Part shown: positions 41,758 to 63,034 of the stretch, piece by piece
Layout: each line of letters starts with the position of its first letter
Numbering within the stretch: position 1 is the stretch's first letter
NCBI GenBank assembly: GCA_018267095.1
Contig: JAFDZC010000017.1
Span: forward strand, 142,431-206,430
DNA length: 64,000 nt
Reading direction: 5' to 3'
DNA from: Bacteroidota bacterium
GTDB lineage: Bacteria; Bacteroidota; Bacteroidia; Flavobacteriales; Flavobacteriaceae
Notes under the pieces: generated by a model
Told to the model about the DNA's origin: nothing
The model's input: the letters and a program-made list of their open reading frames with translations, nothing else
The model's database searches: none
Made by a program: the position numbers and the translations under genes

Positions 41758-41854
41758 TTGTGGATTGATTTAAAAAAAATGTTAAGTCTTTTAGAGTTTG
41801 TAACAAGTTCCGGGTTCATTCGACTTAGTGAGCAAATCATCAAATCAAATCATT

Positions 41855-42271
41855 ATGAAAAAATCAATCATTTATTTAAGTATGGCTTTTGTAGCCTTGA
41901 GCAGTTCAGTTGTGACGGCTTCAAATTTGACAACTACTAATTCAGAAAGACATTTCAAAACCGGAACTCCGCTTTGTGTAGCTATTCAAAAAGGAGAATT
42001 TGACTTTGTGAAAAAGCTCGTTGAATACGGTGCCGATGTCAATGAACGATCAAACGGAATGACACCACTCATGGTAGCGGCTCGCTACAACAAAGTTGAT
42101 ATTATTAAATATTTGCTTGCGCACGGAGCCAATCCAGACATCAAAGACGACAAAGGTTTTAACGCTGCCAAGTATGCAGAGCTTTCGTTGGCCCATGATG
42201 CCTATGAGCTTTTGCGTATAATCGCGAAAACGAAATTTCCACAAAATAAAAACGAAATTTCCATTTTTTAA
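41855..42271 (+). CDS. Secreted ankyrin-repeat protein; C-terminus probably replaced by prophage-end sequence
   Basis: TPLCVA, TPLMVAARYN; last ~18 codons run through the transposase-site-like repeats. Confidence 0.8.
   Translation: MKKSIIYLSMAFVALSSSVVTASNLTTTNSERHFKTGTPLCVAIQKGEFDFVKKLVEYGADVNERSNGMTPLMVAARYNKVDIIKYLLAHGANPDIKDDKGFNAAKYAELSLAHDAYELLRIIAKTKFPQNKNEISIF
42227..42263 (+). repeat. Direct repeats, putative transposase binding sites
   Basis: AAAACGAAATTTCCA at 42227 and 42249 (22-bp period), 14 bp after TG at 42213. Confidence 0.75.
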
Positions 42272-42346
42272 GCATCAACAAGTATAATATTCAATATTAT
42301 TTAAACGCGTCTTAAATGAAATTTAAATGCGTAAAAATAAATGAAA

Positions 42347-42382
42347 AAAAAGCCTGAGAAAGTGTGTTTTTTCAGGCTTTTT
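42347..42382. terminator. Terminator after the formyltransferase-like gene
   Basis: AAAAAGCCTGA...TCAGGCTTTTT. Confidence 0.65.
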
Positions 42383-42423: not shown

Positions 42424-43092
42424 TCAAGTTGATGGAGAGCCGTGTTGCTCAATCATCAGCAAGTCTGGTTTGTATACATCTTTGACATCTGTATTTGGTT
42501 CAAAAGTGCTAAACTCTTTTTTTTGGGGTCGTTTAATAATTACGCCATTGCTTATATCAATAAGCGCGCGCCTCAATAGGTTTAGACCCATATCTTGCAA
42601 AGTATTTTCCCATAGTTTTTTGGCTGCTTTTTTTGGTTCAATTGAATACATGGCGGGATCAATAAAGCAAAAATCTTGATATGCAACATCTCCTCGATCT
42701 ATTCCATCATTCAACCAAAAAACAGTTCCCCCAGTAATTGGATCACGCATACGTATAGCCCACTCAATAGATGAACGACCACGGTGTCTAGGCAACAAGC
42801 TTGGATGATAACCTATCCAACCAAGCCTGCACTTATATCGAGATTTTTTACCTATGTAGTCAAATGAATGTGCAGTTATGCCTAAGTCAACATTGTCCGG
42901 TATTTTATCAGCCGAAAGCGTTCCAGAAGGTATTACTGGAATATTGAATGTGTGTGCTATTTGCGTCAAATATTTATCATCCAAAGGAGCACAAACCCCA
43001 ACAATTTCAACAAATTCAAGCTCATTGCACAGCCTAAACACTTGTTGGCCAAAATACTTTTGGCTAGATATAAAAACTTTTAATTTATTCAT
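42424..43092 (-). CDS. Formyl-THF-dependent formyltransferase/hydrolase-fold protein
   Basis: GYHPSLLPRHRG.SSIEW, GGTVFWLNDGIDRGD. Confidence 0.9.
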   Translation of the reverse strand: MNKLKVFISSQKYFGQQVFRLCNELEFVEIVGVCAPLDDKYLTQIAHTFNIPVIPSGTLSADKIPDNVDLGITAHSFDYIGKKSRYKCRLGWIGYHPSLLPRHRGRSSIEWAIRMRDPITGGTVFWLNDGIDRGDVAYQDFCFIDPAMYSIEPKKAAKKLWENTLQDMGLNLLRRALIDISNGVIIKRPQKKEFSTFEPNTDVKDVYKPDLLMIEQHGSPST

Positions 43093-44205
43093 TGCCTAAA
43101 TATTTAAAACTTTGAACCGCACGTAAATGGCCACCATAACCGCAACCGGTTATACTACCCTTTTTACCGGTCTTTTCAATACTTTGCTTACTTCTGACCT
43201 TATTAGAACCGTAAAGCATGGCCCCTGTTTGTGCCCACTTTTTCGAGTTTCTTAAATAGCCACAAAGTTGTGGGTGTGATGTATGAAAAAAAGTGTGATA
43301 CTTTCTTTGGCACCGACCGTTCCCTTCTAGGTGATATTGCATTACTTCATTTAAAAATGCAGTTCCTACACCTGCGCCTTGCCACTCTGGCATAACAACT
43401 AATCTTGTCGCCCTATATGCAGTGGCCGTAAAGAGTGGGCAAACTGCTAAATGAGCTACAAGTTCACCGTTTACAGTTGCAACAAAATATTCAGCGGCAG
43501 GTGGGTGAGGTAAATCTAAATAGTAATGCTCTTTAAAATACCTCCAATAACTTCCGTTTGTCTTCCAAATGTCGAGTTTAATAGACGGTCTTTTTTGGAC
43601 TTTTTTTTTACTTCACCGGTCCGAGTATCATATACCCAATCCGGTTGCAGCCATTCAACGACATCATAGTGGCAAGAAAGCAAAACTATTTTCTTGCCTT
43701 TTGTTCGCCTCCAAGATTTTGAAAAAGCAGCTGCGCCAATTTGAGCAATTTGCCTGTCTACTACACTGGTAAATTCATCAATCACAACTCGATCAGGTGC
43801 ATTACAAATCAGCCTAGCCAAGCCCGCCCTGTATTGTTCGCCATTCGAAAGCGACTTAAAAGGCCGTAGCCATGCGGGTACATTACCAAGCCCAACGGCA
43901 GAAAGTGAGGCGGTAACTTCATTTAAGCTCATTTGCGGGGCGATATTGTCCACGATAGGTAAAGTGTTGTCCCAATTACTATAAAGGTCGTGTATAGGCA
44001 AATCTTGCCAAATTTGAGCGCCAATTGATGTTTTGCCGGAACCAGATGGGCCAACAATCAGACCGATTTGCCAATTTTCATCTTCAATTGGTAAATCAGC
44101 TTCATGTGTCCATGTGTGACCATTATCGGCGTTAAACAATGATTTTACTTTTTGAGCTCTGAAGGTCTCAAAATTTTTGGTTGTGTGATTGACAACAATT
44201 TTCAT
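43085..44205 (-). CDS. ABC-ATPase + GNAT acyltransferase, fused by a predicted -1 shift at 43606-43600 (~373 aa)
   Basis: GPSGSGKT, LSNGE, VVIDEF, CH; the -1 frame is open from 43600 to 43085 and contains RLVVMPEWQGAGVG. Confidence 0.8.
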
Positions 44206-44333
44206 ACTGATACTACTTTTAAATCCTTAAATCCCATTTCTGATAACTTTTCAAAAACTTTTTTTTGCTCATCCTCGCTACTACACTTCACGATTACAGC
44301 ATGTTGCTCTTTGTAGGTAAAATTTTTACTCAT
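44202..44333 (-). CDS. 43-aa protein not in the ORF track (MSKNFTYKEQHAVIVKCSSEDEQKKVFEKLSEMGFKDLKVVSV)
   Basis: ATG at 44333; ATGA overlap with the ATPase start. Confidence 0.7.
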   Translation of the reverse strand: MSKNFTYKEQHAVIVKCSSEDEQKKVFEKLSEMGFKDLKVVSV

Positions 44334-44373: not shown

Positions 44374-44516
44374 TTCCTACGATAATTTAAGACACAAAAA
44401 AGCCACCGAATAGAAGACTTATGTCCTCCAACTCGGTGGCTTCGTGCTATAATAAATTACCGTAGGAAAGTATTTATTTTGTTGGAGGACTTTTTTTATA
44501 CTGCCTCCACAGTATT
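44374..44516. ncRNA. Structured leader / antisense RNA candidate
   Basis: Stems 44374-89/44453-68, 44400-09/44433-42, 44423-32/44481-90, and a small hairpin at ~44499-44516. Confidence 0.5.
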
Positions 44517-46152
44517 AGAAAATTTTTCTATAAGCTAAATAATCCGCGTACATATTCAAAGATGTCGTTCCCGCAATTTTGTTAAACAAGTTGTACCAAT
44601 GCATCGCAGTGGATGTTGAAGGAATATTTGTTGTGTGGGTGGCCACTAAAGTATCGTTGATATAAAAGCCAACACTAGTCCCCGCTGAGTTTATTTCAAT
44701 TCGAAGCCGAACCCAACCACTTGCCGAAATTGCCACAGCTGAATTTGTCGTCGTACGAACAGATGTATTTATAGTTACACAACGCCAGTTTGGTGATGCG
44801 CCTAAAACTCCGCCGCCCCAAACGCCACCTTCGTCGTAAATAAAGAATATGCCATTTGTAGTTGAGTTAACATTACCTGCTGTATAAGCTCCAAATATTG
44901 CTGTAAAGCGATCTGTTGAATTTGATAAGCTTTCAATGTTAATATAAACCTCATAGCTGATAGCACCATTGCCAATATAGTATTGAGGTGCGTTGTTCGA
45001 GCCTAATCTAAACACGCCGTTACCCGTTGAAGTTGTACCCGTTGATAATAAAAGAACACCCTCCTGAATAGTTCTGTTAGGAAAAGTACCCGTTGTTCTT
45101 CCGACAGAACCTGTGCCTGATGTTACAACGACCACTCCTAGTGTAGTACCAATCCCAGAGTTATCATTTGTGCCTAAAAAATGTTCAATAAAAAAAACAC
45201 CTTTTCTACGCCATGCCCACATATCCTCTTGGGGTGTAAATCCAATCAAATTTTGTTTTAAATCTAGCGCGGCCTGTTGTAGCGTTGATACTGGCTTTTG
45301 CGTGTCAGAAGTATTATCTACATTACCCAATCCAACCTTTGCTTTTGAAAGGCTACCAATCCAAGAAGGATTATCGTATACTTCTGAAAGTCTCACATAA
45401 AAAGATTGATAGTCCGACTCTACAGCAACTATGTTTCCGATTCTCCCAAAAACAGAGGTCACAGAATCTGAGTTATCCACTTTTGACCAACCGCTCACGG
45501 CTCCTAGTGATAAAATCCAATCACCGGTAGAATAATCGATACCATCTTTTGTAAATCCTGAAGTAACAATAAAATAAACCCCAGCATTTGATACCGTTGG
45601 ATTTGGCAAAGGCAAACCATTGAAAGATACGTATGCCGAACTAACAATCGTTCCGTTGTATGTGCCTCTGAACCTAACGTTTCCGAGTATTTCATCCGGA
45701 AAGTAGGCAGTTGGTATTTTCTGGTCCGCACCTAATGGCGTAACTCCGAGAGCCGCACCAACCAAATCAGCATTAAGCTTCAAATCAAAAGCGGCCATTA
45801 AGTCAGCTTGGTTTTGTAAGTCACCTTCGATTTCTCCCCAATTCTTTGCGCCGCTAATATATTCATCGTAGTCCTGAGAGGTCATGCCGGGATGATCATC
45901 CAACCAAACTTGCCTTGCGTCGCGGCCATCAATACCCCTAAAATACTCATAATACTCTTGAATAGTTCCACCCGGGTTATCAACCTGCCAAAGATCGAAA
46001 GCATTTAACCCATCATTACCGTCTATGCCGTCTCTAAAAGCTGAAACTACAACCGGAGCTACTGGGTTTGTCAAAATGCTTACGCTGTCCGATATCGGGC
46101 AACTAACAGTTACAGTAAATGGCAACGCCGATGTAGTAATTGTTACCTGCAT
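44515..46152 (-). CDS. Tail fibre / receptor-binding protein
   Basis: GIDG repeats at the N-terminus; beta-rich Thr/Gly C-terminal domain; last gene of the tail operon. Confidence 0.7.
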   Translation of the reverse strand: MQVTITTSALPFTVTVSCPISDSVSILTNPVAPVVVSAFRDGIDGNDGLNAFDLWQVDNPGGTIQEYYEYFRGIDGRDARQVWLDDHPGMTSQDYDEYISGAKNWGEIEGDLQNQADLMAAFDLKLNADLVGAALGVTPLGADQKIPTAYFPDEILGNVRFRGTYNGTIVSSAYVSFNGLPLPNPTVSNAGVYFIVTSGFTKDGIDYSTGDWILSLGAVSGWSKVDNSDSVTSVFGRIGNIVAVESDYQSFYVRLSEVYDNPSWIGSLSKAKVGLGNVDNTSDTQKPVSTLQQAALDLKQNLIGFTPQEDMWAWRRKGVFFIEHFLGTNDNSGIGTTLGVVVVTSGTGSVGRTTGTFPNRTIQEGVLLLSTGTTSTGNGVFRLGSNNAPQYYIGNGAISYEVYINIESLSNSTDRFTAIFGAYTAGNVNSTTNGIFFIYDEGGVWGGGVLGASPNWRCVTINTSVRTTTNSAVAISASGWVRLRIEINSAGTSVGFYINDTLVATHTTNIPSTSTAMHWYNLFNKIAGTTSLNMYADYLAYRKIF

Positions 46153-46460
46153 ACTTCAAACTCAGCTTTAAAAATGATCGATTTAATATCTTCTAATTTT
46201 ATCTCAGCATAATAAGTTCCTGAATCCAATCCCTGACCTGATGGGTCTATCCACCATGTCATTACTTCATTTGAAATGCTTAAATCAGTACTAGGAATTT
46301 CGAACCTTGTATTTTTTGCGGGAGAATTCCACACGTCCAATTGATATGTACCACTCCAAGGCTCAGAAGCCGTAAAAACAATAGGTCTTCGCTCAGACTT
46401 CCCAACCGCCTTAATTTTTAAAAGCGTCGCAATTGATGGGTCAATAATAACTGTATTCAT
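46143..46460 (-). CDS. Phage tail-associated hypothetical protein
   Basis: Overlapping neighbours in the tail operon. Confidence 0.55.
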   Translation of the reverse strand: MNTVIIDPSIATLLKIKAVGKSERRPIVFTASEPWSGTYQLDVWNSPAKNTRFEIPSTDLSISNEVMTWWIDPSGQGLDSGTYYAEIKLEDIKSIIFKAEFEVCR

Positions 46461-46987
46461 CGTGATCCTATTTGATAAGTGGCTAACCATTTTACGCTTG
46501 GGGCAGTCGTTAACTTTCGAATAACTGCTACATCTTTGTAATCTGAATAATGAAAAGGTAGGCCATCAATAGTTCCGCCTGCAACCTGATAATTAATTCC
46601 GAAAGGGTAACCATTATCGAGCAAATAAACCATAAATGTAGAATTTGCAGGGAACTCGCCGTTAATGGTAAATATCTGTGTTGTTCCAGCGACAATATCG
46701 TTTTCAATAACGATAAATTTATTTTCATCGCCAGGCTGTGCTATATAAACACCTGTAGAAACAATTGAAGATAAAAGTATTCTCTTTTCTACTCGTGCGT
46801 TTGAACTTTCAATATCGTCACGCAGTTTGTTTACAAAATCACGCAAAACTTCAAACTCAGTAGCCGTTAAAAAATACTTCGGGTCTTTGCCCACCATATA
46901 GGCCAACTTTTCGAGCGAATCTTCTTTAGAAAGTATTTGTAAATACTTTGGATCTAGACCGGGTATTGATGGTGTCGTAATTGCCAT
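46457..46987 (-). CDS. Phage tail-associated hypothetical protein
   Basis: Position in the tail operon. Confidence 0.55.
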   Translation of the reverse strand: MAITTPSIPGLDPKYLQILSKEDSLEKLAYMVGKDPKYFLTATEFEVLRDFVNKLRDDIESSNARVEKRILLSSIVSTGVYIAQPGDENKFIVIENDIVAGTTQIFTINGEFPANSTFMVYLLDNGYPFGINYQVAGGTIDGLPFHYSDYKDVAVIRKLTTAPSVKWLATYQIGSR

Positions 46988-46989
46988 GA

Positions 46990-47484
46990 TTATAAAATAG
47001 TAGGTGAAGTTAATTCCTGAATTTTTTTATAAAACTCATATAAAAACAAGGTTTTATTTGAGTTTGTTACAGTTACAATAGTTCCGTCTGTTGCTAGAAA
47101 ATCAACATCTCCAGTCGAACCAGTATATAGTCCAATGGCAAAATACCTAAGTCTAGCCGCCTCATGCATTGGGAACTGTTTTGAGGCATAAACAAATGTG
47201 GCAGAATTAATGTCATTGATTTTATTCTGTTCAACAATCTGAGTTTGTTCGGCCAAATACTCCGCCTCAAATTCAGCCATCTCACCGGTTGACCTTTCCA
47301 CAAGCACACCGCCAACAATTTTTAAAGGACAAACCCCGAATTGATATTCTGGCACTAAATTTTCAGCCAAAATAAGAGGGTTATCTTCTTCACCGAGTGC
47401 TTGAAGCTCTTGAAGACTTTTAGCCCAACCGTGCCACTGTATAAATGGCTTTTCTGAAATTTCTACAGCTTTTAAATATCTCAT
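46990..47484 (-). CDS. Putative tail-fibre assembly protein
   Basis: Follows the first fibre-like gene. Confidence 0.5.
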   Translation of the reverse strand: MRYLKAVEISEKPFIQWHGWAKSLQELQALGEEDNPLILAENLVPEYQFGVCPLKIVGGVLVERSTGEMAEFEAEYLAEQTQIVEQNKINDINSATFVYASKQFPMHEAARLRYFAIGLYTGSTGDVDFLATDGTIVTVTNSNKTLFLYEFYKKIQELTSPTIL

Positions 47485-48296
47485 GGTTTTGCAATAATTA
47501 AATAATGTAACTCAGTATTTTTAGTAGTTGTGTCAAACTCTTTCGCAATAATTTTAAAAGAGGTGGGCGTAAAATCACTTGTAACTACCGGAACACAGTC
47601 TTGTCCGGCTGCTCCTAGAGTTGAGCGAGACTTTAATGTTGCAAAAACTATATATTGGTCTGTGCCGACACTTGGAAAAGTTACAGTTGTTGTGGCTGTT
47701 GTGCCGCTAGATGGATTTGGAAAGTTACCAAGCCCAATTGAGTCATGTTTCAAAACAGGCAAAAGCAAAGGCTTGTTTTTAATGAAAGAATCACTCAATG
47801 GATTTATGTCTGCCCAATCCGCCTGAACATTTACCTCTGCATTAGACTCAATCCCGTTTAACTTTGTAAGAAGCAATGAAGTAAAATTATTGTCCGTATG
47901 AACATAGTTTTGGTCATAAACAGGATAAAGCCTAGTAAAAGTAGACAACAAAGCTCCAGATGCATTTACTTGCGCAACTGCTTGAGTATATACCGCCAAA
48001 TTACTGCCGCTTTCAAATGGCGCTGTGGTGGTTACAATCGCCTTGATGATTTTAGGGTCTACAGTTCCGGTAACTCCTGGAAAATAACATAAGTCACCTG
48101 ACATGTACAAGTAACCCGCCGTAATGTTTCCGGAAGAAACTTGGCAGCCCGATATGACATAATTTGAGGTATCGTCTAAGCCTATGTACTTGACAAAAGC
48201 CCGCAAAATTTCAGAGTACCCCTGTTGGAGCTTATCCAAAACATGCTGCTCAAGTGGGAAACCTCCTGGTTGTGTAAAATCTATTTTTATCATCAC
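47481..48296 (-). CDS. Baseplate-proximal tail fibre protein
   Basis: GGFPLEQ..L..LQ, VISGC, VQADW....S..FIKNKP motifs. Confidence 0.65.
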   Translation of the reverse strand: MMIKIDFTQPGGFPLEQHVLDKLQQGYSEILRAFVKYIGLDDTSNYVISGCQVSSGNITAGYLYMSGDLCYFPGVTGTVDPKIIKAIVTTTAPFESGSNLAVYTQAVAQVNASGALLSTFTRLYPVYDQNYVHTDNNFTSLLLTKLNGIESNAEVNVQADWADINPLSDSFIKNKPLLLPVLKHDSIGLGNFPNPSSGTTATTTVTFPSVGTDQYIVFATLKSRSTLGAAGQDCVPVVTSDFTPTSFKIIAKEFDTTTKNTELHYLIIAKP

Positions 48297-48751
48297 TAAT
48301 AAATTTCAATTGAGTATTGTTTTCCGGCAAGTTTATAGAAGTCAACAACTGCTCTGAGTCTTGCCTCATCAAAGCTTATGTCAGATGGTATTTTTATTAC
48401 GAACTGGTATGTGTTGCCAGTATCTCTGTCTAAATATTTTGTTCCCAGATAAACCGGTTTGTTTTCTGAGGTTTGATATATATACAATGGTCCGTTAAAA
48501 GTTCCATCTTCAATTATTACCCTGCGAGTAGCCAAATGATTTATTGGGTTGTAGTCTTCTACCTCAAGATATTCGTTTAAAACCTTTTCCAAATAAATAA
48601 CACGGCTGTCATGCTGCATTTGGTATAAAGTAGTATTTGAAAGCGTGGTCAATGGTTTCACCAATGAGCGCAGCAACTTCAACTGAATAGTCTTGCGAAA
48701 AAAAGACACATCAGAGACCAACTTATTAAAATCAACTTGATGCCAAATCAT
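48296..48751 (-). CDS. Baseplate wedge (gpI-like) protein
   Basis: YLEKVLN, VDFYKLAGKQY; follows the gpJ-like gene. Confidence 0.6.
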   Translation of the reverse strand: MIWHQVDFNKLVSDVSFFRKTIQLKLLRSLVKPLTTLSNTTLYQMQHDSRVIYLEKVLNEYLEVEDYNPINHLATRRVIIEDGTFNGPLYIYQTSENKPVYLGTKYLDRDTGNTYQFVIKIPSDISFDEARLRAVVDFYKLAGKQYSIEIY

Positions 48752-49589
48752 AAGCCAAATAAGTTATATTCAAATCCGATGGATCAATTTTAAAATACCC
48801 GCTTTCCGGTACCTTCCACTCATCAAAATCAGCAAACGCAAAGGAGGCAAACTTCCATTGGCAGGCCTCAATAATTGGTAGCTTAACACCGGTAGCCGTT
48901 TGCAATTGATTTTTTAAAAACTCCTTAACAAATGCACCGTTGAATTCTAAATTCGCCAAGTACTCATTAATTGCATTTTCAACTGGTTTATTAGTTTCAG
49001 TAGTGGTGAGCAATTGGCCGGTACTCAAATCAATAATTGAGGGATCTACATATACCTTCAAAGACAAAAGCAAATTATCGGGTGATTGATTTACAATTCT
49101 TATTCTATTGCCCGCATCCTTAATTAAATTCATATAGGTTGTAAACCTTGCAAGTTGCGCATTGGACAATGGGCCAAGCACACCCGAATTTGTGGTGGCC
49201 ACCTTAACAACAAGTTGCCCATCGTTTGATTCAAGCACAGCAGCTCTATCAATTATTTGCCGTTGCTCTGCATCAGTTACTCCGGTTAGGTCATAGCCAA
49301 ATTGGCCATTAATCCACACCAAGGGTAAGCCATCCAAAAAATTAAACACCTGTTCGCGATACCATCTGATTGTGTGTGGTCTTGAGTTCTCGGCATTTTT
49401 GGCAACTATTTGCTCGTGCAAAAAAATTGCAAATGACAATACATTGAAAAGTATATTTTCGAACGACACCAAGCTAAATTCTTGCTCAAATGTATTGCCC
49501 GGAGTCAGGCCATAAATACTTTGTATTTGTGGATCTGCAATCCAATTAGCCGTCATTTCATCTTTGATGGTTTTTCTGTCTCTGGCCAT
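48732..49589 (-). CDS. Baseplate J-like protein
   Basis: RPHTIRWYREQ, VKVA, IKDAG.RI; start at MARDRK. Confidence 0.7.
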   Translation of the reverse strand: MARDRKTIKDEMTANWIADPQIQSIYGLTPGNTFEQEFSLVSFENILFNVLSFAIFLHEQIVAKNAENSRPHTIRWYREQVFNFLDGLPLVWINGQFGYDLTGVTDAEQRQIIDRAAVLESNDGQLVVKVATTNSGVLGPLSNAQLARFTTYMNLIKDAGNRIRIVNQSPDNLLLSLKVYVDPSIIDLSTGQLLTTTETNKPVENAINEYLANLEFNGAFVKEFLKNQLQTATGVKLPIIEACQWKFASFAFADFDEWKVPESGYFKIDPSDLNITYLAYDLASS

Positions 49590-49590
49590 T

Positions 49591-49869
49591 TTAAAATGAT
49601 AATGGGAACCCGTCCGGAAGTTCATACATCAACGGACTTGGCTCGATTAATTTTGTAGCGGGTCTATTGGCTTCGCCAAAATAACTTGCCACCGATTTAT
49701 TTGTAATTTCAGTTGTTGTCAATGATTGCCCAACGGTCAGCTCATCAGTAACTGACACACCGTTTGCCAAAGCCATTTTAAAGGCATTGTCAATGTCCCC
49801 AGTGCATTCAATCACTTTATCGATGAAGCTTTGACCGCTGTAAACAATATCTTTACTCATAATTTGCAT
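49591..49869 (-). CDS. LysM-like baseplate protein
   Basis: GQSFIDKVIECTG..DNAFKMA.AN.VS.TD.L..GQ.L. Confidence 0.6.
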   Translation of the reverse strand: MQIMSKDIVYSGQSFIDKVIECTGDIDNAFKMALANGVSVTDELTVGQSLTTTEITNKSVASYFGEANRPATKLIEPSPLMYELPDGFPLSF

Positions 49870-50191
49870 CTAGCATAAGGCCGTTTTCGGCGTTGAATTC
49901 AACACTTTTAACTTTGAATCCATCTTTTGACAAGTGTTCTCTGATTCTTACCTGAAATCTCAAATAATCATCATCAAGAATGATGTCTTTTATTGCAACA
50001 CCAATGGTGGGGTTGAAATGAAATTCACCTGGCGATGCCATAATGATAAGAGCCTGATTTTGCCTAACTACATTGCCCACAACAAAACCACTTGTTATTA
50101 ACCCATCAGTTCCGCGAACAGCTTTAATTTTTAAATCAAGCAGCTCACCAGAATCTGTATTGTCATACAGCAAAAGCCCGAAAGATTTCAT
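49853..50191 (-). CDS. gp25/gpW-like baseplate protein
   Basis: GEF..NP.IGVAI...I; position in the baseplate cluster. Confidence 0.6.
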   Translation of the reverse strand: MKSFGLLLYDNTDSGELLDLKIKAVRGTDGLITSGFVVGNVVRQNQALIIMASPGEFHFNPTIGVAIKDIILDDDYLRFQVRIREHLSKDGFKVKSVEFNAENGLMLDANYE

Positions 50192-50704
50192 TTACGTTGC
50201 ATTTAATATTTGATTAAACTGCGTTTTAATATTATTTAAAGCCGCTATTGAAGCAGGATTTAATGTTCCAGTTGTTGTATCTGAATTTATTATTTGAGCC
50301 GCAGAAACAGCATCAATTAAAGTGTTGATCAACTGGCCAAGATTTACAGATTCGTTTTTCAACGTTACCTTTTTAGTAACAGAATCAACCAAAAACTCGA
50401 GACCATTTTGTTTAAAAACAATTTGGCTATAATTATCCGCCTTTAGTAAAACCAAATCTGTAAGCTTTCCACTTGTGGATATCATCAGCGCATCAGTTCC
50501 AATCTTGGGCAATAGTTTTAGGCCGTCTCCAGGTGTGTCAAAAATGGTGGCCGAAAGCTTTACATCAGATATAACCAAATCCTCGGTTATTTTCACCGTG
50601 CAGCTGTCTTGTTCGATACTTATCACTGTGCCCATCACGAAGTTGATACCCCGCTCATTCGCCACTTCTTTAAGTAGTCTTTTGAATTCTGCTACCTTAT
50701 CCAT
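50192..50704 (-). CDS. Baseplate spike (gpV/gp45-like)
   Basis: OB-fold-like GTVISIE..CTV, LLPKIGT. Confidence 0.65.
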   Translation of the reverse strand: MDKVAEFKRLLKEVANERGINFVMGTVISIEQDSCTVKITEDLVISDVKLSATIFDTPGDGLKLLPKIGTDALMISTSGKLTDLVLLKADNYSQIVFKQNGLEFLVDSVTKKVTLKNESVNLGQLINTLIDAVSAAQIINSDTTTGTLNPASIAALNNIKTQFNQILNAT

Positions 50705-51671
50705 TGCCCAATTTTACACCTGGTTTAATTGTTCTTTTGATGCCCGAGGCGCTCATGTTGGTTGTAACACTCACAACATAGTATACGCCGGTTTTATCGG
50801 GGTAATCATCATCGATTATTTTTGCCGAAAAAGTTGGCTTTACCGTCGGTATAAGCCATCCGTCAAAGGTGCCCTCATACATATCAGCGCTTCTGCGAAT
50901 GAGCTCTGCATCTGCAATTTTTTTAAGGTCGATTTTTGAAACACAACCAAGCTTTAGGGTAACTTTATCACCTCCGGTTGTTCCGGTGGTATAGCTTTCA
51001 ATTTTGCCCTTTAGGTTGGTACTTTCAACTGTAACCTCTACTTTCCTGTCTTCCGCTTTTTTATATTCAAGGGATGAGTTTTCAATGTTTACCTGCATTG
51101 AGTAAACCACCTCTCCACCTTTTTCAATATAGGGCGGGTGAATGTGGAGCTCCTTACGCTCAGTATTAAAATAGATATTTGCTTTAGTTTCTTCAGCTAT
51201 TTTTTTTAAGACATCAAAGCCCGTAGCCTGATGAATAATGAATTTTTCATAATTGATATCGTAATCACATTTTACGACAAAGGTTGGGTCAATCTGAGAA
51301 ACAAGCAGCTGTGCTATTTTTTTTACTGATGTAGGTTTGAGTTGAACATTTTTAACAGTTTTACGAAAAAGAAAAAGTGCATCCTCGCAGTTTATTTTCA
51401 AAGAACTATCGTTTGTGGTTATATCCTTGACATAGCCAACAAATTCTGTTTTTAATTCACCATCATAGCCCAATTGGATTAGTACTTCAGATCCGCGTTT
51501 AACTTTGCCCTGCAAGTCCAAAACTTGATTCATAACGGCATCTGGCAAAGTGATCACAGCGATGTCGGCAAGATTGTCAACACTGGCCTCAATGTTGACT
51601 TCTTCAACGGTTTGGAGCAGGTAAGCAACTCCATCTGTTTTGAATTTTATTTTCCAATTGATATCAAACAT
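50697..51671 (-). CDS. Baseplate hub / late control D-like protein
   Basis: IQLGYDG.L..EF.GYV, YEGTFDGWL.P, G.YYV..V. Confidence 0.75.
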   Translation of the reverse strand: MFDINWKIKFKTDGVAYLLQTVEEVNIEASVDNLADIAVITLPDAVMNQVLDLQGKVKRGSEVLIQLGYDGELKTEFVGYVKDITTNDSSLKINCEDALFLFRKTVKNVQLKPTSVKKIAQLLVSQIDPTFVVKCDYDINYEKFIIHQATGFDVLKKIAEETKANIYFNTERKELHIHPPYIEKGGEVVYSMQVNIENSSLEYKKAEDRKVEVTVESTNLKGKIESYTTGTTGGDKVTLKLGCVSKIDLKKIADAELIRRSADMYEGTFDGWLIPTVKPTFSAKIIDDDYPDKTGVYYVVSVTTNMSASGIKRTIKPGVKLGNG

Positions 51672-51755
51672 GATTTAAAAAAAAGGCCGCCGCCGTGAAT
51701 GTCATCATCCCGATGACAAACATTAAGAGCATTTTAAATAAACGCATAATCTTAA

Positions 51756-52415
51756 TTATAACTCATTCACCAAAAGCGAATAAGATGTATCACTAATTAA
51801 CTTTAAATCATAGGCCTGAACATTCTCACCCTTGGTAAAAGGAAATGAATAATCCTCAACAACAACTTTTGTAACTCCAAGGGCCTCGAGCGGATAAGAA
51901 TAGATGAATATTTCTTTGCTATATTTCAGATAATCATAAAGCTCGGTCATCATTGTTTTTGGAAAGGCCTGTTGGGGTTTTCCGGTAAGCCTTTTACTCA
52001 TTAATATGCCGGTAAGTTGTATGTCCACATCCTTGCGGCTCCATCGCTCTTTAACTGTCCCCCAAAGTTTGTCACCTTGCTTGGCAACATTTCTTCTTAC
52101 AATGTTATTACCTGATGAAATGTTCATCAATGGCTCGTACGGAAACAACCATTTTACACCACCCTCGGTGAATGAAAAAGACACCGGAAAGAATTGCTCA
52201 TCTTCTGATGGTGGATTGTCAATGAAGTCCATTTTTTGCAAATCATTGTAATCTTTTCGGCCAACTCTTGAGGGCCATCTGATCGGCAAAAAAGGGATTG
52301 AATATGGCACATGTTTGAGAGCTTCGTTTTCAACCAAAGTAAGTCGCTCAGTAGCTTTTACTGCTTCGCTTCCCATCAAGCTTGCAAAAATCAAATCATT
52401 GTCCTGTAGTCCCAT
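51756..52415 (-). CDS. Tail protein (DUF6046-like)
   Basis: EPLMNIS..NNIVRRNVAK..GTVKERWS..D; follows the tape measure gene. Confidence 0.7.
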   Translation of the reverse strand: MGLQDNDLIFASLMGSEAVKATERLTLVENEALKHVPYSIPFLPIRWPSRVGRKDYNDLQKMDFIDNPPSEDEQFFPVSFSFTEGGVKWLFPYEPLMNISSGNNIVRRNVAKQGDKLWGTVKERWSRKDVDIQLTGILMSKRLTGKPQQAFPKTMMTELYDYLKYSKEIFIYSYPLEALGVTKVVVEDYSFPFTKGENVQAYDLKLISDTSYSLLVNEL

Positions 52416-54391
52416 TAGGATGTCGCTGTTGTGGCTGATGCCAATAATCTTAAAATTTCGTCTAAAACTTCACCGCCCGCTTTGTTGGCTGCCTCTTTTC
52501 CGGCTTGAACTACACCGGCTTTAATACCGTTGAGCTCTTTAATTGAAATGGTGATGTAATTGTGCTTTGTTCCACCAGTTGCAATATTTTCAGATGATTT
52601 CTTTACTTTTTCAGGTGCAATTCTATTTGGCTGTAAGTCCGTATTTACTCCTGGTATTTTTGGCGCTTCAATTCCAGAAGATGTGGCGGCCTTTTGCTCG
52701 TCTTTTTTCCAACTTACAGAGTTGAATGCCTTTTTGAATTCATTGGCGGAAGCCATAGTCATTTCATAGGTTTTTTTGTAGCCCGCTTTGATAGATTCCT
52801 TTCGAGCTTCAACATCTGCATTGAGTTTGGCTATCTCGGCATTGTTGGCATTTTTATCACCTAAACCGGCCAAGTTTTTAAACTTATACCAACCGATCAT
52901 GATTTTATCAATGCCAATCATGATCCCGCTCACCATCAAATTGAAATTTGATTTTACATATTGAACGTAGGCTCCAAACAAAAGCTTTGCGCCATTGACT
53001 GTGTGCGTCCAAAGCTTGCCCCAGCCTTCTGTTTTTTGGGCAACATAAACAATCGCCGAGATAAGCGCGACTACACCGGCGACAATTAAAACGATTGGGT
53101 TGGCCGCCATAACTGCATTAAAAATCATTTGTACGCCCGTCCAAAGTTGTGTCGCCGTGCTTACAGCGCCCGACCAAAGAGCTTGCATTTTTGTTGCGCT
53201 TGTAAGCGTTGATAAAACAGCGCTGCCCGCTTGAAACAAAGGCAACATATTGCTAAAATCGCGCGTTGTATTACCTATTACAGTTGCATATCCCAATAAA
53301 CCATTGGTTCCGTTAAACAAGCTGATTTTAAAGTCGTCAATTTGCGCCTGAAGCCTTTTGTTTTTCTCTGCCGGGCTTTCCATAACAACTGCAGCTTGTT
53401 CATAAGCCGTATTGGTTCCTTGAATAGCCTTAGTTAGCCGCTCCATTTCATTAGTTCCGGAAATGAGCGAAATAGCAGCTGCCGTGTTTTCTTTACCGAA
53501 CAATTTGGTCAACAAAGCTTGGTCACCCATGATTTTTTTGAGTGGATCTAAACGCTCTTTTAAAGATTTAGATCTATCACCCAAAGCATCTACGCTAATA
53601 CGCGCATCGGACAACTCCTTTTTTACTTCTTTTGGTAAAAATCTACCCTCTGAAAGTGTTGCCAATACATTACGCAAGGCAACACCACCCTCGGCACCTT
53701 TTTTACCAGACTTGTCTAAAACTTGAATGGCGGCATTTGTTTCAGCGAAAGAAACATTCGCAGTTTTGGCAGCCAAACCAGATTGCTCGAGTGCATTTTT
53801 AATTTGCGGGAGTTCAGCTGATCCCTCTTTTGCTCCTGCGGCCATGATGTTCATCATGTCGGCCATAGTTTGTGAGGCCCTGATTGGATCATCAAGCGAA
53901 ACCTGGTACTGGTTCATAGCCGTTGTCAAAACCTCAGTGGCCTTAACGGTGTCACCATCCATTGTTTTAGATAGTGTACTGACTGATTTACCCATAGCCT
54001 CTAGTGCCTTGGGCTGTTTTGCTATTTCGGGTGTAAGCTGAGATAAAATTAACTTGTAGGCCTCAACGCCATCAGCGGCGGAACCACCAAAAGTTTTGGC
54101 GTTTTGACGTGCATATCCCTCAATCTCTTTAAGTTTATCACCGGTTTGACCAGTGATAGCCGATAAATCTGCCAAAGAACTTGAAAGTTTTAAACCAGGA
54201 TCATTTACAGACATAATACCGTTAGCAACTGAATCAATGTTACTAATGATAGACTGTACTTTTATTTGGCTTAAAGACTTATTTATGTTGTCAATACCTC
54301 CCTTGAAGTTTTTTTCAAAAGCACTAAACTGAGCATTGGCCTTGTCAAAATTGCTATTGATTTTAATAATGTATTCAAGAGTATTGCTCAT
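52415..54391 (-). CDS. Tape measure protein
   Basis: LADLSAITG, MAAGAK.GS, LEQSG..AK; Ala-rich helical. Confidence 0.9.
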   Translation of the reverse strand: MSNTLEYIIKINSNFDKANAQFSAFEKNFKGGIDNINKSLSQIKVQSIISNIDSVANGIMSVNDPGLKLSSSLADLSAITGQTGDKLKEIEGYARQNAKTFGGSAADGVEAYKLILSQLTPEIAKQPKALEAMGKSVSTLSKTMDGDTVKATEVLTTAMNQYQVSLDDPIRASQTMADMMNIMAAGAKEGSAELPQIKNALEQSGLAAKTANVSFAETNAAIQVLDKSGKKGAEGGVALRNVLATLSEGRFLPKEVKKELSDARISVDALGDRSKSLKERLDPLKKIMGDQALLTKLFGKENTAAAISLISGTNEMERLTKAIQGTNTAYEQAAVVMESPAEKNKRLQAQIDDFKISLFNGTNGLLGYATVIGNTTRDFSNMLPLFQAGSAVLSTLTSATKMQALWSGAVSTATQLWTGVQMIFNAVMAANPIVLIVAGVVALISAIVYVAQKTEGWGKLWTHTVNGAKLLFGAYVQYVKSNFNLMVSGIMIGIDKIMIGWYKFKNLAGLGDKNANNAEIAKLNADVEARKESIKAGYKKTYEMTMASANEFKKAFNSVSWKKDEQKAATSSGIEAPKIPGVNTDLQPNRIAPEKVKKSSENIATGGTKHNYITISIKELNGIKAGVVQAGKEAANKAGGEVLDEILRLLASATTATS

Positions 54392-54557
54392 TGTTTCGTT
54401 TTGCTTCTAAGGTTCTGACAAATTCAAGTTCAGCATAGAGTGCCGCCCACTTTTCATCTGACAACTCATCCGGGTCGGGTATATTAAAGTAATACCTTAA
54501 TTGGGCGTTGATGACTCTGATTGTATCGGCTTCATCAACCACGAATGAGTTTAGAAC
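54375..54557 (-). CDS. Frameshift extension (GT-type) of the tail assembly chaperone
   Basis: -1 frame open for 61 codons (VLNSF..NAQLRYYFNIPDPDELSDEKWA..LEFVR) between chaperone and tape measure. Confidence 0.65.
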   Translation of the reverse strand, partial: VLNSFVVDEADTIRVINAQLRYYFNIPDPDELSDEKWAALYAELEFVRTLEAKRNNEQYS

Positions 54558-54880
54558 TTTTCCAGTTGTGAAACTTTAATCTTTGAAATTTCTTCTATAT
54601 GAAGACATGCCGACAAAAAGTATTTATCATCGGTTTTGAAAATTTCATCTCCACCGATAAAACATTGCTGAATGATTGTCTCATTATATTTCATTGGGTC
54701 TTTTTGACCCGCCAATCCGGCATAACTCAAAATTTTTCTGTCCGGTTTTTTGAAGTATGCAATTTTATCATCGCATGTAACTGCAAAAAATTCATCATGC
54801 TCTTTTTTCCAAGCCTCAATTTGCTCTTGTGATGCCTGTGATGGATAATTTGATTTTTGTTGTTGTTCTGATGTGTTCAT
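54551..54880 (-). CDS. Tail assembly chaperone
   Basis: Between tube and tape measure; IEAWKKEH..F, YFKKPDRK. Confidence 0.75.
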   Translation of the reverse strand: MNTSEQQQKSNYPSQASQEQIEAWKKEHDEFFAVTCDDKIAYFKKPDRKILSYAGLAGQKDPMKYNETIIQQCFIGGDEIFKTDDKYFLSACLHIEEISKIKVSQLEKF

Positions 54881-54932
54881 CTTTTAAAAGGAGTTTAAAG
54901 CAAATCCCGAATAATCGGGATTTGCTGATTTA

Positions 54933-55346
54933 TTATACTATTCTTTGAATGCCCAACGCGATAAAAGGCAATGTGCGCGGCATGAATTTATCACCTTGTT
55001 TGGCGGCTCGCTCAGTTTCAGTGAATTTCACGCCTCGGATCAAATCAGTTCTGATTGCATCACCATTGGCCGGATTACCGTACGCCACTAAGATGCCGAT
55101 GTTTGAACGTGTGATATCTCCACCTGCGGCAAGCTCCAAGGCATCATAGTCTGATTGCAATAGCTCAAGCTCACCCTCATAAGATGAATTACCCGTTTGA
55201 ATGCTATGTGGCTCACGACCTTTTGCGTAAATCGGCTCAGATTCAACTTTCTTTTTGTACTTGACTTGGCGGATTCCTTTTGAGTCAATACCGCCGATGA
55301 CGACGGTTACATCCGCCCACTCGTATTCTCTTGTATCAAATGCCAT
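54933..55346 (-). CDS. Tail tube protein
   Basis: FDTREYEWAD, KGREPHSIQ.GN.SYEG; follows the sheath. Confidence 0.8.
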   Translation of the reverse strand: MAFDTREYEWADVTVVIGGIDSKGIRQVKYKKKVESEPIYAKGREPHSIQTGNSSYEGELELLQSDYDALELAAGGDITRSNIGILVAYGNPANGDAIRTDLIRGVKFTETERAAKQGDKFMPRTLPFIALGIQRIV

Positions 55347-55351
55347 GATTC

Positions 55352-56548
55352 TTATGAGTTTATAGTGTAACCAATTGTGAACTCAATAAATCTTGCGTAC
55401 CCTTTTGGTCTTACCTTGATTTTACCTTTAATTTTTGATGTTGTAGCAACAACCTCATTTAGATCAATTTCACATTGAACACCTTTATCGTTCGGGTTAT
55501 TTGCATCAGCAGACAACTCACCGTTGGCCGTCATTTCTTGAGCAATTACTCGCTCAACTTCACTTTGAATGTGGTTTGCTACAATTGGAGATATTTTACC
55601 ATCAGCAGTCACATCTAAATCATCCAACACATAATTGGTCAATGTACCATTGGCCAAAACAAAAGCCTTGTCAATCGTTCTTCGACGCGCCAAATAATGA
55701 TAGTCATCTTCAACAGTACACGCCATTGGATCATCTGTGAAATAGTAGCCAGACTTTCCGACGTGGGTTCTAAGAGTAACAAAGCCCTTGTCATGCAACG
55801 CTGTTACGTTGTAGCGCTCAACCGGTGTGTCAACAATGTAAAACTCAAGTGGCTTCAAAGCCCCATCTTTTACACGGCCAACATTTACATGCACCTGATT
55901 TTTGGCAAACCTTCCACCCAGTACACCAATAGCGGCACCTTTTGAAGCGGTGGTTCCGGTGCGTGTTTCGGTATCACCAATCATTACCATTACACGATTA
56001 TTTGTCAATGCCGTAAATCCGACAAGGTCCTGAGCTACTCCTGTAAAATTGTAGCCCTCAATCATGTACACAACTGGGTGAATATTGTCAGTTGTATATT
56101 GGTCTGCAATACCCTGAGCCGCGGCAATTGTCGCCGGAAATCCGGTTCGAATACCTGAGGCAACAGCGGTGTCGGCGGCAGACGGTGAATACTTCACCAT
56201 TACGGCTCTGATTTTTCTATCAGAGTTAATCAACAACTGCTCTGATGCCGTGATGATTTGGTCAAGTGTAAGCGTGCGCGCAACACCATAAATCCAAAGC
56301 TCTGTTCCATTGCCACACTCTGCATAAAACTCTTTGATAGTTTTATAAAGCGCGTGGTTTGCTACGCTGTTGGTAATGCCTAAATTTTCGGCATCCTTCA
56401 AGCTGTAGATTACATAGTGCTTGTTCAACTCAAAAGTGGTTGAAACAGCCTCGGCACTTGATATGAGGCCACAGAGTCCGTCAGGACTAGTGGCCACCAC
56501 ACCAAGGTTACCGTTTTCAAATGTGATACTTGCTCCTGGTAATCCCAT
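55352..56548 (-). CDS. Tail sheath protein (DUF2586-like)
   Basis: GLPGA.I.F.NG.LG, GYYFTDD, RTIDKA, PKGYAR.I. Confidence 0.85.
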   Translation of the reverse strand: MGLPGASITFENGNLGVVATSPDGLCGLISSAEAVSTTFELNKHYVIYSLKDAENLGITNSVANHALYKTIKEFYAECGNGTELWIYGVARTLTLDQIITASEQLLINSDRKIRAVMVKYSPSAADTAVASGIRTGFPATIAAAQGIADQYTTDNIHPVVYMIEGYNFTGVAQDLVGFTALTNNRVMVMIGDTETRTGTTASKGAAIGVLGGRFAKNQVHVNVGRVKDGALKPLEFYIVDTPVERYNVTALHDKGFVTLRTHVGKSGYYFTDDPMACTVEDDYHYLARRRTIDKAFVLANGTLTNYVLDDLDVTADGKISPIVANHIQSEVERVIAQEMTANGELSADANNPNDKGVQCEIDLNEVVATTSKIKGKIKVRPKGYARFIEFTIGYTINS

Positions 56549-57081
56549 TATTTTTTAGCTTTTAAAGCATCTAAAACCTCATTGATTAATGTGGGTTTAT
56601 TTGCGGTTTTGTTTTTCACTTCAATTGATTTTGTCTTGGCCCAAGCAATGATTTCTGCCTTGGTTTTTTGGTCAAGCTCGTCAAACAACTGTTGACGCTC
56701 CAGATCTGTTGTTACAGGAGCAGGTTCTGTTGTTACAGGGGCAGCTTCTGTTGTTACAGGAGCAGGTTCTGTTGTTACGGGTGCAGCATCTGTTGTTACG
56801 GGTGCAGCATCTGTTGTTACCGGCGCAGCATCTGTTGTTACCGGACCTTGTGTTGTAGCTTGTTCAGCTAAAAACTCGGCCATTTCATTTGCATCATCAC
56901 CAACCACCTCTGCGTCTTCAACCTTGATATGGTCAGGATTCAATACACATTCAACATTTGTGTCTTGAAGCGTTTTTGCGTGGTTTTTTGCGTCGTTTTC
57001 GTTGTAAAATGCTTGCCCATCAGAGGTAAAATGCGCCTCTTTTAAATGCGGATTTTCTTTAAATACTTCTTCTTTTTTCAT
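56548..57081 (-). CDS. Hypothetical virion protein with 7 x PVTT repeats and a HeH/Rho-N-like C-terminus
   Basis: 7-aa repeats; KTKAEIIAWAK..IEV...ANKPTLI. Confidence 0.65.
   Translation of the reverse strand: MKKEEVFKENPHLKEAHFTSDGQAFYNENDAKNHAKTLQDTNVECVLNPDHIKVEDAEVVGDDANEMAEFLAEQATTQGPVTTDAAPVTTDAAPVTTDAAPVTTEPAPVTTEAAPVTTEPAPVTTDLERQQLFDELDQKTKAEIIAWAKTKSIEVKNKTANKPTLINEVLDALKAKK
56706..56844. repeat. Coding 21-bp tandem repeat, 7 copies
   Basis: CTGTTGTTAC recurs every 21 bp from 56706 to 56832. Confidence 0.95.
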
Positions 57082-58361: not shown

Positions 58362-58408
58362 GTGATTTAATTTAAAAGCCGCCGCAACTTGTACGGCGGC
58401 CTTGTCTA

Positions 58409-59317: not shown

Positions 59318-59328
59318 CTTTTTTAATT

Positions 59329-62573: not shown

Positions 62574-62577
62574 GATT

Positions 62578-63033: not shown

Positions 63034-63034
63034 A

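Follow-up and report, generated by a model that had tools for sequence, protein, structure and literature searches.

A conserved -1 site between an ABC-type ATPase and a GNAT domain in a candidate nucleic-acid modification cassette of a Mu-like prophage

The window analysed here, the whole 64,000-nucleotide stretch of a Flavobacteriaceae contig, carries three overlapping genes on the minus strand (42424-44333), flanked by a tail fibre gene on one side and by the right end of a prophage on the other. A first-pass annotation had placed them there; its coordinates and overlaps are confirmed, and the motifs it quoted from the encoded proteins (QGAGVG, in full WQGAGVG, GYHPSLLP and DGIDRGD) are all present. 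In the direction of transcription the cassette encodes a protein of 43 amino acids (aa), an ABC-type ATPase followed by a GNAT domain, and a protein of the formyltransferase fold (here called Fmt-like), with gene junctions that overlap by 4 and 8 nucleotides (nt). We read the cassette as a recoding-dependent system for the N-acyl/formyl modification of nucleic acid, probably DNA, and put the probability of this reading at about 50%. Its parts are as follows.

44333..44202, minus strand: open reading frame (ORF) of 43 aa, its stop overlapping the start of the ATPase (ATGA)
44205..43516, minus strand: zero-frame ORF of the ABC-type ATPase, 229 aa
43600..43609, minus strand: recoding site, a run of nine A (A9, 43601-43609) and then G
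43085..43602, minus strand: GNAT domain with a conserved basic C-terminal tail (GCGYGGHLRAVQSFKY), in the -1 frame
42424..43092, minus strand: formyltransferase-fold ORF, 222 aa, its start overlapping the GNAT stop by 8 nt

The junction between ATPase and GNAT

The ATPase carries a Walker A motif (GPSGSGKT), a signature (LSNGEQ), a Walker B motif (VVIDEF) and the H-loop His, and matches Pfam family PF00005; the GNAT domain matches PF13508 and PF00583, and its motif WQGAGVG is of the canonical coenzyme A (CoA) type, Q-x-x-G-x-G. All family assignments of the cassette exceed chance by a wide margin. The four ATPase motifs and the Q-G-x-G of the GNAT, all present in the window, are invariant in 52 homologues. 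The first-pass annotation had described an ABC ATPase joined to a GNAT; the two domains are indeed there, but they do not form one ORF, as the fusion needs a -1 shift at the A9 run. The zero frame of the ATPase (...GEVKKKSKKDRLL...) ends at 43516 after 229 codons, and the GNAT domain continues from the junction in the -1 frame (...KKKVQKRPSIKLDIWK...) to 43085. The first possible start codon (ATG, GTG or TTG) of that frame is an internal ATG at 43393; since a start there would delete the N-terminal part of the domain, we rejected independent translation of the GNAT.

The junction reads GTA AAA AAA AAG TCC, and the A9 run includes the zero-frame heptamer A_AAA_AAG. A -1 ribosomal slip here, or one A inserted during transcription, would join the ATPase to the GNAT domain in a transframe product of 373 aa (44205..43600, then 43600..43085), with ...EVKKKVQKRPSIK... 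as the predicted sequence spanning the junction and ...GEVKKKVQKRPSIK... as a candidate tryptic peptide across it. This product matches phrog_11143 end to end (residues 1-372, E 7e-145), and it is only through the -1 shift that the locus has a single ABC and GNAT polypeptide belonging to that family. The homologue of Flavobacterium oreochromis, 84% identical to the 373-aa product, is uninterrupted and has an A7 run.

We collected 41 close loci from IMG/VR and GTDB genomes (35 unique junctions, 60-85% protein identity), of which 38 need a -1 shift at a run of A9-A11, three are in frame and none needs a +1 shift; the isolates in this set include F. sasangense DSM 21067, F. urocaniciphilum DSM 27078, F. 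palustre, Bizionia algoritergicola and Capnocytophaga leadbetteri DSM 22902. When the family is approached in reverse, through the Fmt-like gene, the best 80 viral contigs contain 77 loci with enough upstream sequence, and all but one of these (76/77) need the -1 shift. A run of A6-A11, mostly A9 or A10, is present in each of the 69 unique overlap zones, and in every case the zero-frame stop falls within the codons for HYYLD, a conserved GNAT motif that belongs to the -1 frame. For the overlap zone a -1 reading gives codon-position entropies of 0.34, 0.26 and 0.60, with the variation at third positions, whereas in the zero frame the variation would sit on position 2, which argues that the zone is translated in the -1 frame. 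These entropies place the GNAT frame upstream of the zero-frame stop under purifying selection, and over its ~170 codons this frame is free of stops across dozens of isolates and metagenomes with the same arrangement.

The need for a shift extends to phages of Firmicutes. In all six that we examined (Streptococcus 315.4 and MismyG, Oenococcus Vinitor-27, Enterococcus 9184, Thomasclavelia TR-TP2 and Lactococcus P335) the ABC ORF ends inside the sequence coding for a RYHYL motif and the GNAT carries on in the -1 frame, which is open for 25-45 codons further upstream with no start codon and encodes there a peptide homologous to in-frame sequence of the fused relatives. Candidate slip sites, judged by their letters, would be A_AAA_AAG in Enterococcus 9184, A_AAG_GGC in the Oenococcus phage, and C5/G5 runs or GAAAAAG elsewhere. 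Porphyromonas, Burkholderia, Gordonia and most other distant loci have plain in-frame ABC-GNAT fusions. As a separate observation, the ABC|GNAT pair of Enterococcus phage 9184 (L112:2462-3903) lies directly after the DNA polymerase gene, and its GNAT-frame ORF, itself annotated 'DNA polymerase', has a C-terminal extension of ~190 aa.

The sequence is compatible with either of two mechanisms, ribosomal frameshifting, for which A_AAA_AAG and A_AAA_AAA are established -1 sites (PMC3711429), or transcriptional slippage, for which runs of A9-A10 would be long enough to permit realignment, as in Thermus dnaX. The likeness to -1 recoding in dnaX and in insertion sequence (IS) elements covers both the slippery sequences (A_AAA_AAG, A_AAA_AAA and A9-A10 runs; PMC3711429, PMC5009743) and the outcome, two proteins with a common N-terminus, one short and one extended. 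The differences are that the gene family is another one, that the short form here is an ATPase to which the long form adds a catalytic transferase domain, and that the slip site in the window comes without a stimulatory hairpin or pseudoknot. The last of these counts against programmed recoding: RNAalifold gives no conserved structure in the RNA 3' of the slip site that could stimulate slipping (-0.24 kcal/mol, mean z-score 0.1), and an Rfam scan of the recoding region gave nothing above threshold. A structure-free slip site is nevertheless compatible with transcriptional slippage, where no stimulatory structure is required. With recoding of either kind the locus would yield two proteins, the ATPase alone (229 aa) and, at a lower level, the ATPase-GNAT (373 aa). 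ABC ATPases work as dimers, so the slip ratio may set the number of transferase domains per ATPase complex.

Two other accounts of the break between ABC and GNAT have to be set against recoding. It falls on a homopolymer, and one relative is without the ATPase part, both of which would suit a sequencing error or a decaying pseudogene, with the cassette inactive in this prophage. However, the A9 run is reproduced identically in two ~30x metagenome assemblies, a 98%-identical variant in a third sequencing run crosses it without an indel, and the 229-aa product has an exact match called on an independent Logan contig (the sequencing runs that contain the window sequence are DNA runs only, with no RNA run among them). 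As the identical arrangement also occurs in dozens of isolates and metagenomes with the GNAT frame stop-free, error or decay at the A-run is effectively refuted by conservation across relatives. The other account takes the A-run as a DNA-level phase-variation switch, working by slipped-strand mispairing, so that most lysogens would have the GNAT switched OFF. Homopolymers 9-11 nt long are mutable, three in-frame variants occur among the 41 close loci, the slip site is without a stimulatory structure, and two IMG/VR contigs with near-identical flanks, L019 and L008, have A10 (-1 needed) and A11 (in frame) respectively, which is either natural variation in tract length or an assembly difference and is the sole hint of switching at the DNA level. 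Phase variation nonetheless predicts OFF states in both directions and at several lengths, whereas the shift seen is always -1 and never +1; the GNAT frame is intact and under purifying selection in all loci, and the Firmicutes phages need the -1 shift without having a long homopolymer. The near-exclusive state of being one A short is unlike what an on/off switch would leave behind, which makes phase variation a weak rival and, in our estimate, an improbable one.

The small ORF and the formyl-folate enzyme

The 43-aa ORF matches phrog_28816 (E 1.3e-7), and an ORF of its type is kept upstream of the ABC-GNAT in about 40 loci. In the distant loci the position directly 5' of the ABC-GNAT is occupied in 24 of 36 cases by a ParB_N protein (PF02195) of ~180 aa, usually overlapping it. 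A hidden Markov model (HMM) made from the small ORFs matches the last ~30 residues of these ParB_N partners, with E values down to 2e-12, and it also matches some stand-alone ORFs of 60-75 aa. Judging from these matches, the 43-aa protein is a free-standing form of the C-terminal beta-alpha-beta domain of the ParB_N partner, and it would most simply be an adaptor that docks on the ATPase. A role as a Com-like zinc-finger translational activator was considered and rejected, given the single Cys of the ORF and its homology to the ParB_N C-terminus. ParB-dependent base modification of phage DNA has a precedent in a dioxygenase (PMC13229309).

The third protein had been said in the first-pass annotation to lack the Asn of the NxH motif of Fmt and to resemble ALDH1L1, and both statements hold. 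It matches PF00551 (E 2e-16, 60.7 bits, curated cut-off 26.1) and phrog_9240 (E 3e-43); on TIGR00460 (fmt) it scores 52.7 bits (E 3e-14), far under the cut-off of 201.5. The best PDB match by sequence is ALDH1L1 (1S3I, E 7.5e-15), with YHPSLLPRHRG identical, and the top Foldseek matches of the modelled structure are 2CFI (TMq 0.73), 1S3I and 2BW0, ahead of Fmt and ArnA; Fmt structures and sugar N-formyltransferases are among its fold neighbours. In Fmt-like partners from four phyla His96, Ser98 and Asp132 are invariant and the Asn of NxH is absent, its place being taken by Gly (Gly94 here) or, in short forms, by Ile. By both sequence and modelled fold, the third gene is closest to a formyl-tetrahydrofolate enzyme of the ALDH1L1/HypX subtype, whose His-Ser-Asp triad is described in PMC6802093. 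Unlike ALDH1L1 and HypX, the phage protein stands alone; it has no carrier or CoA-processing domain and no C-terminal OB/tRNA-binding domain, and in the model the C-terminal end of its 222 aa consists of helices only. The hydrolase domain of ALDH1L1 (FDH) passes formyl to the 4'-phosphopantetheine thiol of a carrier domain, and the N-domain of HypX has been proposed to make formyl-CoA (PMC8748788, PMC6802093); by analogy, a pantetheine or CoA thiol may be the formyl acceptor of the phage enzyme.

Distribution and the end of a transposable prophage

A gene-neighbourhood search bears out the co-occurrence of the three genes. The ABC-GNAT lies directly 5' of the Fmt-like gene in 77 of the 77 viral loci with enough upstream sequence, and the order of small ORF, ABC-GNAT and Fmt-like gene, with overlapping junctions, recurs in Porphyromonas gingivalis phages and in Burkholderia phage phiE255; the same order is found in Gordonia phages, where gene 1 is ParB-like, gene 2 ABC-GNAT and gene 3 Fmt-like, followed by the terminase. 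In the P. gingivalis phages the cassette lies within the last 2 kb of 34.5-kb genomes, which also carry repressor, transposase, MuB-like and Gam genes. In phiE255 it corresponds to gp28-gp30, described in 2010 as hypothetical, 'ABC transporter' and a formyl transferase of unknown role (PMC2920897). Human-gut phage contigs have an ABC-GNAT with an Fmt-like gene, and Pseudomonas phage Komp_PAO1_1 has an Fmt-like gene directly 3' of the ABC-GNAT, and one database protein of 540 aa joins ABC, GNAT and Fmt-like domains. Phages of Streptococcus and Oenococcus have, next after the GNAT, a gene for an ASCH domain protein in place of the Fmt-like one; ASCH proteins are N4-acylcytosine amidohydrolases (PMC6972931) and have been reported as erasers of N4-acetylcytidine (ac4C) in tRNA (PMC6972931, bioRxiv 2026.02.27.708502). 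In other phages, virulent ones included, the system adjoins the terminase or lies inside replication modules.

Two Flavobacterium-type loci (L006:9552-10684 and L092:200-1326) were seen to have a GNAT-only gene of 150 aa, beginning just before HYYLD, together with an Fmt-like gene; there is no ABC ATPase, and the genes upstream of the GNAT are unrelated. Either the GNAT-Fmt pair may work without the ATPase, or these copies are remnants.

The ABC-GNAT family has at least 7,700 cluster representatives at E <= 1e-10, and its members keep 45-65% identity across phages of Bacteroidota, Proteobacteria and Actinobacteria. ABC-GNAT fusions were predicted to be acyl modifiers of DNA bases by Iyer, Zhang, Burroughs & Aravind in 2013 (NAR 41:7635), as recounted in section 3.4.7 of PMC7824862, so the statement in the first-pass annotation that they had been proposed computationally as DNA modifiers was sound; in that section the system appears as a computational prediction, with no chemistry. 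The cassette in the window shares the family, the architecture and the absence of a permease with the predicted system, and the Tenacibaculum phage pT24 protein named in PMC7824862 is a homologue of the window transframe protein (38% identity, E 3e-47). Given so large a family and a prior prediction, the operon is not new as a kind, contrary to what the first-pass annotation had supposed. Distinctive of the cassette here are the fusion by way of a conserved -1 shift, the ParB partner cut to 43 aa, and the obligate neighbour of ALDH1L1/HypX type. The literature we searched holds no report of -1 recoding in the ABC-GNAT family as the means by which the enzyme would be built, of the ParB origin of the small ORF, or of the obligate ALDH1L1/HypX-type partner. 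The -1 site and the ParB-domain origin, along with the ASCH partner in Firmicutes, had been overlooked in the first-pass annotation.

In the window the cassette is a self-contained unit bounded by two hairpin/T-run elements, and it ends 141 bp from the phage terminus. The surrounding features are the following.

44515-46152: tail fibre gene, upstream of the cassette
44396..44440, minus strand: hairpin and T-run (GCCACCGA...TCGGTGGC TTTTTT), a likely terminator, read from the sequence
42344..42382, minus strand: hairpin GCCTGA...TCAGGC followed by T8, the likely terminator of the cassette
42321-42332 and 42299-42310: two direct repeats, ACGC[A/G]TTTAAAT, putative transposase-binding sites
42283..42332, minus strand: right end of the prophage, terminal sequence ...GAATATTATA, last base 42283

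The hairpin at 44396..44440 separates the tail fibre gene from the cassette and, as a likely terminator, would make the cassette its own transcription unit; a simple terminator scan did not flag it, its loop being longer than 8 nt. Relatives have an equivalent hairpin at the place of the 42344..42382 terminator. The sigma-70 promoter scan of the window used a model that is uninformative for a Bacteroidota host. In line with the first-pass description of an ATPase without a permease, no membrane component was found among the genes adjoining the cassette or the annotated genes of related phage loci, no transmembrane prediction having been run; the neighbours of the system across these loci are ParB_N, GNAT, Fmt-like or ASCH, terminase and tail genes.

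The best explanation of the locus is an accessory module at the right end of a Mu-like transposable prophage, the host being of Flavobacteriia type. The prophage genes visible in the window are those for sheath, baseplate hub, tape measure, capsid, protease, the small and large terminase subunits (TerS and TerL) and a portal that reaches past the window end. The large terminase has its nearest relatives in phages of Porphyromonas, Bacteroides (p00), Pseudomonas, Ralstonia and Burkholderia; the Porphyromonas and Burkholderia (Bcepmuvirus) phages are Mu-like, and we take the other three to be Mu-like as well. In about a dozen relatives the Fmt-like gene is followed on its 3' side by a terminator, two direct repeats, a terminal ...TTCGATTATA (...GATTATA), and then unrelated flanks, and such divergence after a common end is the signature of transposition into random sites. 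The window has a terminator, repeats and an end sequence equivalent to those of the relatives, the last base being 42283.

With the tail fibre upstream and host genes downstream, the cassette sits, as the first-pass annotation had noted, at the end where Mu carries mom. In both transposable phages the tail fibre genes are followed, at the extreme right end, by a GNAT-fold enzyme with a small overlapping ORF before it; Mu com/mom ends 115 bp from the Mu right end, against the 141 bp found here. The parallel that had been drawn with mom stands for position but not for the proteins. Mu Mom compared with the 52-sequence alignment by hhalign gave a probability of 0.3%, and no Mom chain was among the PDB profile hits of the GNAT; without a detectable sequence relation to Mom, the analogy is positional only, not evolutionary. 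Mom works alone, with Gly-tRNA as donor and a helix-turn-helix-like insertion, whereas the GNAT of the window has the CoA-type motif, is fused to an ATPase and is partnered by a folate enzyme; where Mu has the Com zinc finger, the small ORF here encodes a domain derived from ParB. Mom does show that a GNAT is able to modify double-stranded DNA, with Gly-tRNA and not an acyl-CoA as donor (PMC13219725).

The co-occurrence of the genes at Mu-like ends holds for the window, for the Porphyromonas phages and for about a dozen relatives, but not throughout: in L022, L023 and L091 the Fmt-like gene is followed by a conserved ORF (start MSE/K..LSYRWALSDAIFTKDKGKVFSC) and by >1 kb more sequence, and the cassette is thus not always terminal. 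At the other side of the prophage, TerS, TerL, an adaptor-like gene and the portal (60499-64000, plus strand) are divergent from the protease, capsid and tail block (44515-60309, minus strand), a layout shared with the Porphyromonas transposable phages; the transposase/repressor region of the window prophage lies beyond the window end. An ankyrin-repeat gene (41828-42271, plus strand) with an N-terminal signal-like segment has its stop 11 nt from the predicted prophage terminus and by the end-sequence criterion belongs to the host flank, outside the phage. Ankyrin-repeat genes are uncommon in bacteria.

Proposed function and competing explanations

Under the reading given at the outset, the system would act once replication is over and acylate a base at an exocyclic amine, with phage DNA as the likeliest nucleic acid. 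Engagement of the polymer would depend on ATP and be provided by the ATPase dimer, with the ParB-derived piece as adaptor, and the acyl group in this clade would be formyl, the Fmt-like enzyme either supplying formyl-CoA to the GNAT or adding formyl directly. The outcome would be protection from host nucleases, a function analogous to that of Mom and evolved independently. We consider DNA as the target to be about an even proposition, on the strength of gene context, namely the ParB_N partner, the ASCH genes, and either neighbours in replication and packaging or the mom slot. The 45-65% identity maintained across phages of unrelated hosts suggests a universal substrate.

The ASCH partners and the precedent of TmcA/NAT10 point to acyl chemistry on a base amine, perhaps the N4 of cytosine, in DNA or RNA. 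TmcA and NAT10 likewise pair a P-loop ATPase with a GNAT and use acyl-CoA and ATP to acylate a base amine, and proteins of the ASCH type, which deacylate N4-acylcytosine, neighbour the phage system in Firmicutes; unlike in TmcA and NAT10, the ATPase of the window is ABC-type and not helicase-like, there is no tRNA-binding domain, and the partner is of ParB type. A relay from 10-formyl-tetrahydrofolate to formyl-CoA, and then through the GNAT to the target, is coherent, as an enzyme of ALDH1L1/HypX type is here paired with a GNAT bearing a CoA motif, and we put it forward tentatively, as a testable idea of rather low probability; the Fmt-like enzyme may also formylate amines directly or serve in ASCH-like hydrolytic editing. 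More speculative again is the complete scheme, a second and Mom-independent route of DNA acylation in which labile formyl-CoA from the folate enzyme would be used by the ATPase-GNAT, placed on DNA with the ParB-derived adaptor, to modify a base amine (giving, for instance, N4-formyl-cytosine), with recoding at the poly-A run fixing the subunit ratio.

A number of observations weigh against the cassette being a DNA modification system, in addition to the structure-free slip site and the undetectable relation to Mom already described. The top 50 fold matches of the modelled ATPase domain are mostly nucleotide-binding domains of transporters, and no DNA-type ABC ATPase (Rad50/SMC/UvrA) was found among these 50 as nearest fold; the domain also resembles the nucleotide-binding domains of ABC-F proteins. 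Against PDB profiles the GNAT gave only weak generic hits, which tie it to no characterised subfamily, and the relatives that keep just the GNAT and the Fmt-like gene mean that the ATPase is not always required. On the chemical side, adenine bearing a simple N6-acyl group is reportedly unstable (PMC13219725), the ASCH proteins known so far act on nucleosides and tRNA and not on DNA (PMC6972931), and Fmt relatives, like ASCH, are known on RNA substrates. Our literature searches found no experiment or modified-base data for the ABC-GNAT family or the cassette.

Some of these points would suit a different target, RNA or aminoacyl-tRNA, with the system acting either like TmcA/NAT10 or like those GNAT toxins for which the amino group of aminoacyl-tRNA is the acylation target, and with the Fmt-like protein acting, as Fmt does, on that same amino group, for the purpose of host takeover or of evading a tRNA-directed defence. 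The ASCH partners in Firmicutes come from the family that deacylates N4-acetylcytidine, with its reported tRNA ac4C erasers (PMC6972931, bioRxiv 2026.02.27.708502), the Fmt-like protein scores on the fmt model, if far below its cut-off, and has Fmt structures as close fold neighbours, and ribosome-binding ABC-F proteins and NAT10 appear among the best ABC sequence matches and the weak GNAT profile matches (E 0.04-0.1 for NAT10), respectively. However, neither of these last two matches is significant, the Fmt-like protein has neither the tRNA-binding domain of Fmt nor the Asn of the amine-acting transferases, the constant partner is a ParB_N-type protein or its remnant, and the genes lie among those for DNA replication and packaging or in the mom slot; we regard an RNA target as unlikely, though the likeliest of the rivals. 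Somewhat less likely is that the module acylates a protein, such as host RNA polymerase or one used in defence, or a small molecule, such as an antibiotic, an amino sugar or a nucleotide signal, as a moron concerned with takeover, anti-defence or lysogenic conversion. An independently terminated unit at a prophage end is typical of morons, and GNATs and PF00551 formyltransferases commonly act on amino sugars and small amines, with sugar N-formyltransferases indeed among the fold neighbours; the small ORF of the Porphyromonas phages is labelled 'acr candidate', and the authors of phiE255 suggested a role in lysogen advantage (PMC2920897). Yet the level of ABC-GNAT identity across three phyla argues against host-specific sugars or proteins, the system is also found in virulent phages and inside replication modules, it is linked to ParB_N and ASCH, and in PADLOC the cassette matches no defence or anti-defence family. 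The DpdN-type formyltransferases offer one more possibility, that the Fmt-like protein formylates preQ1 in 7-deazaguanine-modified DNA, since formyl-dPreQ1 is the predicted product of a PF00551 protein (DpdN) from a Flavobacterium phage (PMC10516641). That paper also mentions PF00551 groups with no connection to the preQ1 pathway, our search for the Fmt-like protein in 50,697 phage records gave no Flavobacterium phage, and the complete Porphyromonas phage genomes with the cassette have neither DpdA nor genes of the preQ pathway in their annotation (for the prophage of the window, the early region is out of view), and we reject the link as very improbable.

If DNA is indeed what the module modifies, phages would have one more enzymatic way, different from Mom, of hypermodifying their DNA. 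The combination of a CoA-type GNAT with an ALDH1L1/HypX-like enzyme suggests new chemistry in the form of a formyl-CoA relay to a formylated base, and if this were true both enzymatically formylated DNA bases and formyl-CoA as a GNAT donor would be new biochemistry. The system occurs in thousands of phages and prophages, including those of Porphyromonas gingivalis, Burkholderia, Pseudomonas, Streptococcus pyogenes and Lactococcus, and would then have a bearing on restriction evasion, phage engineering and sequencing artefacts; as cultured phages carry it, the question can be tested directly and with ease.

The recoding would be a conserved -1 event beyond the classic cases (dnaX, IS elements and tail chaperones), one by which an ATPase gains a fused enzyme domain, and its product is systematically split or cut short by the annotation pipelines in use. 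For instance, in databases of Streptococcus, Oenococcus and Lactococcus phages the GNAT is shown as a fragment of 87-129 aa or as 'hypothetical'. Labels elsewhere in the cassette are also inconsistent, as in Gordonia phage Axumite (gene 3, L108:1805-2452) and relatives and in L109, L110, L111 and L114. The Fmt-like gene is called 'tRNA-methyltransferase' or 'cyanobacterial phosphoribosylglycinamide formyltransferase', the ATPase 'ABC iron siderophore transporter' and the Oenococcus ParB_N protein 'adenine-specific methyltransferase'.

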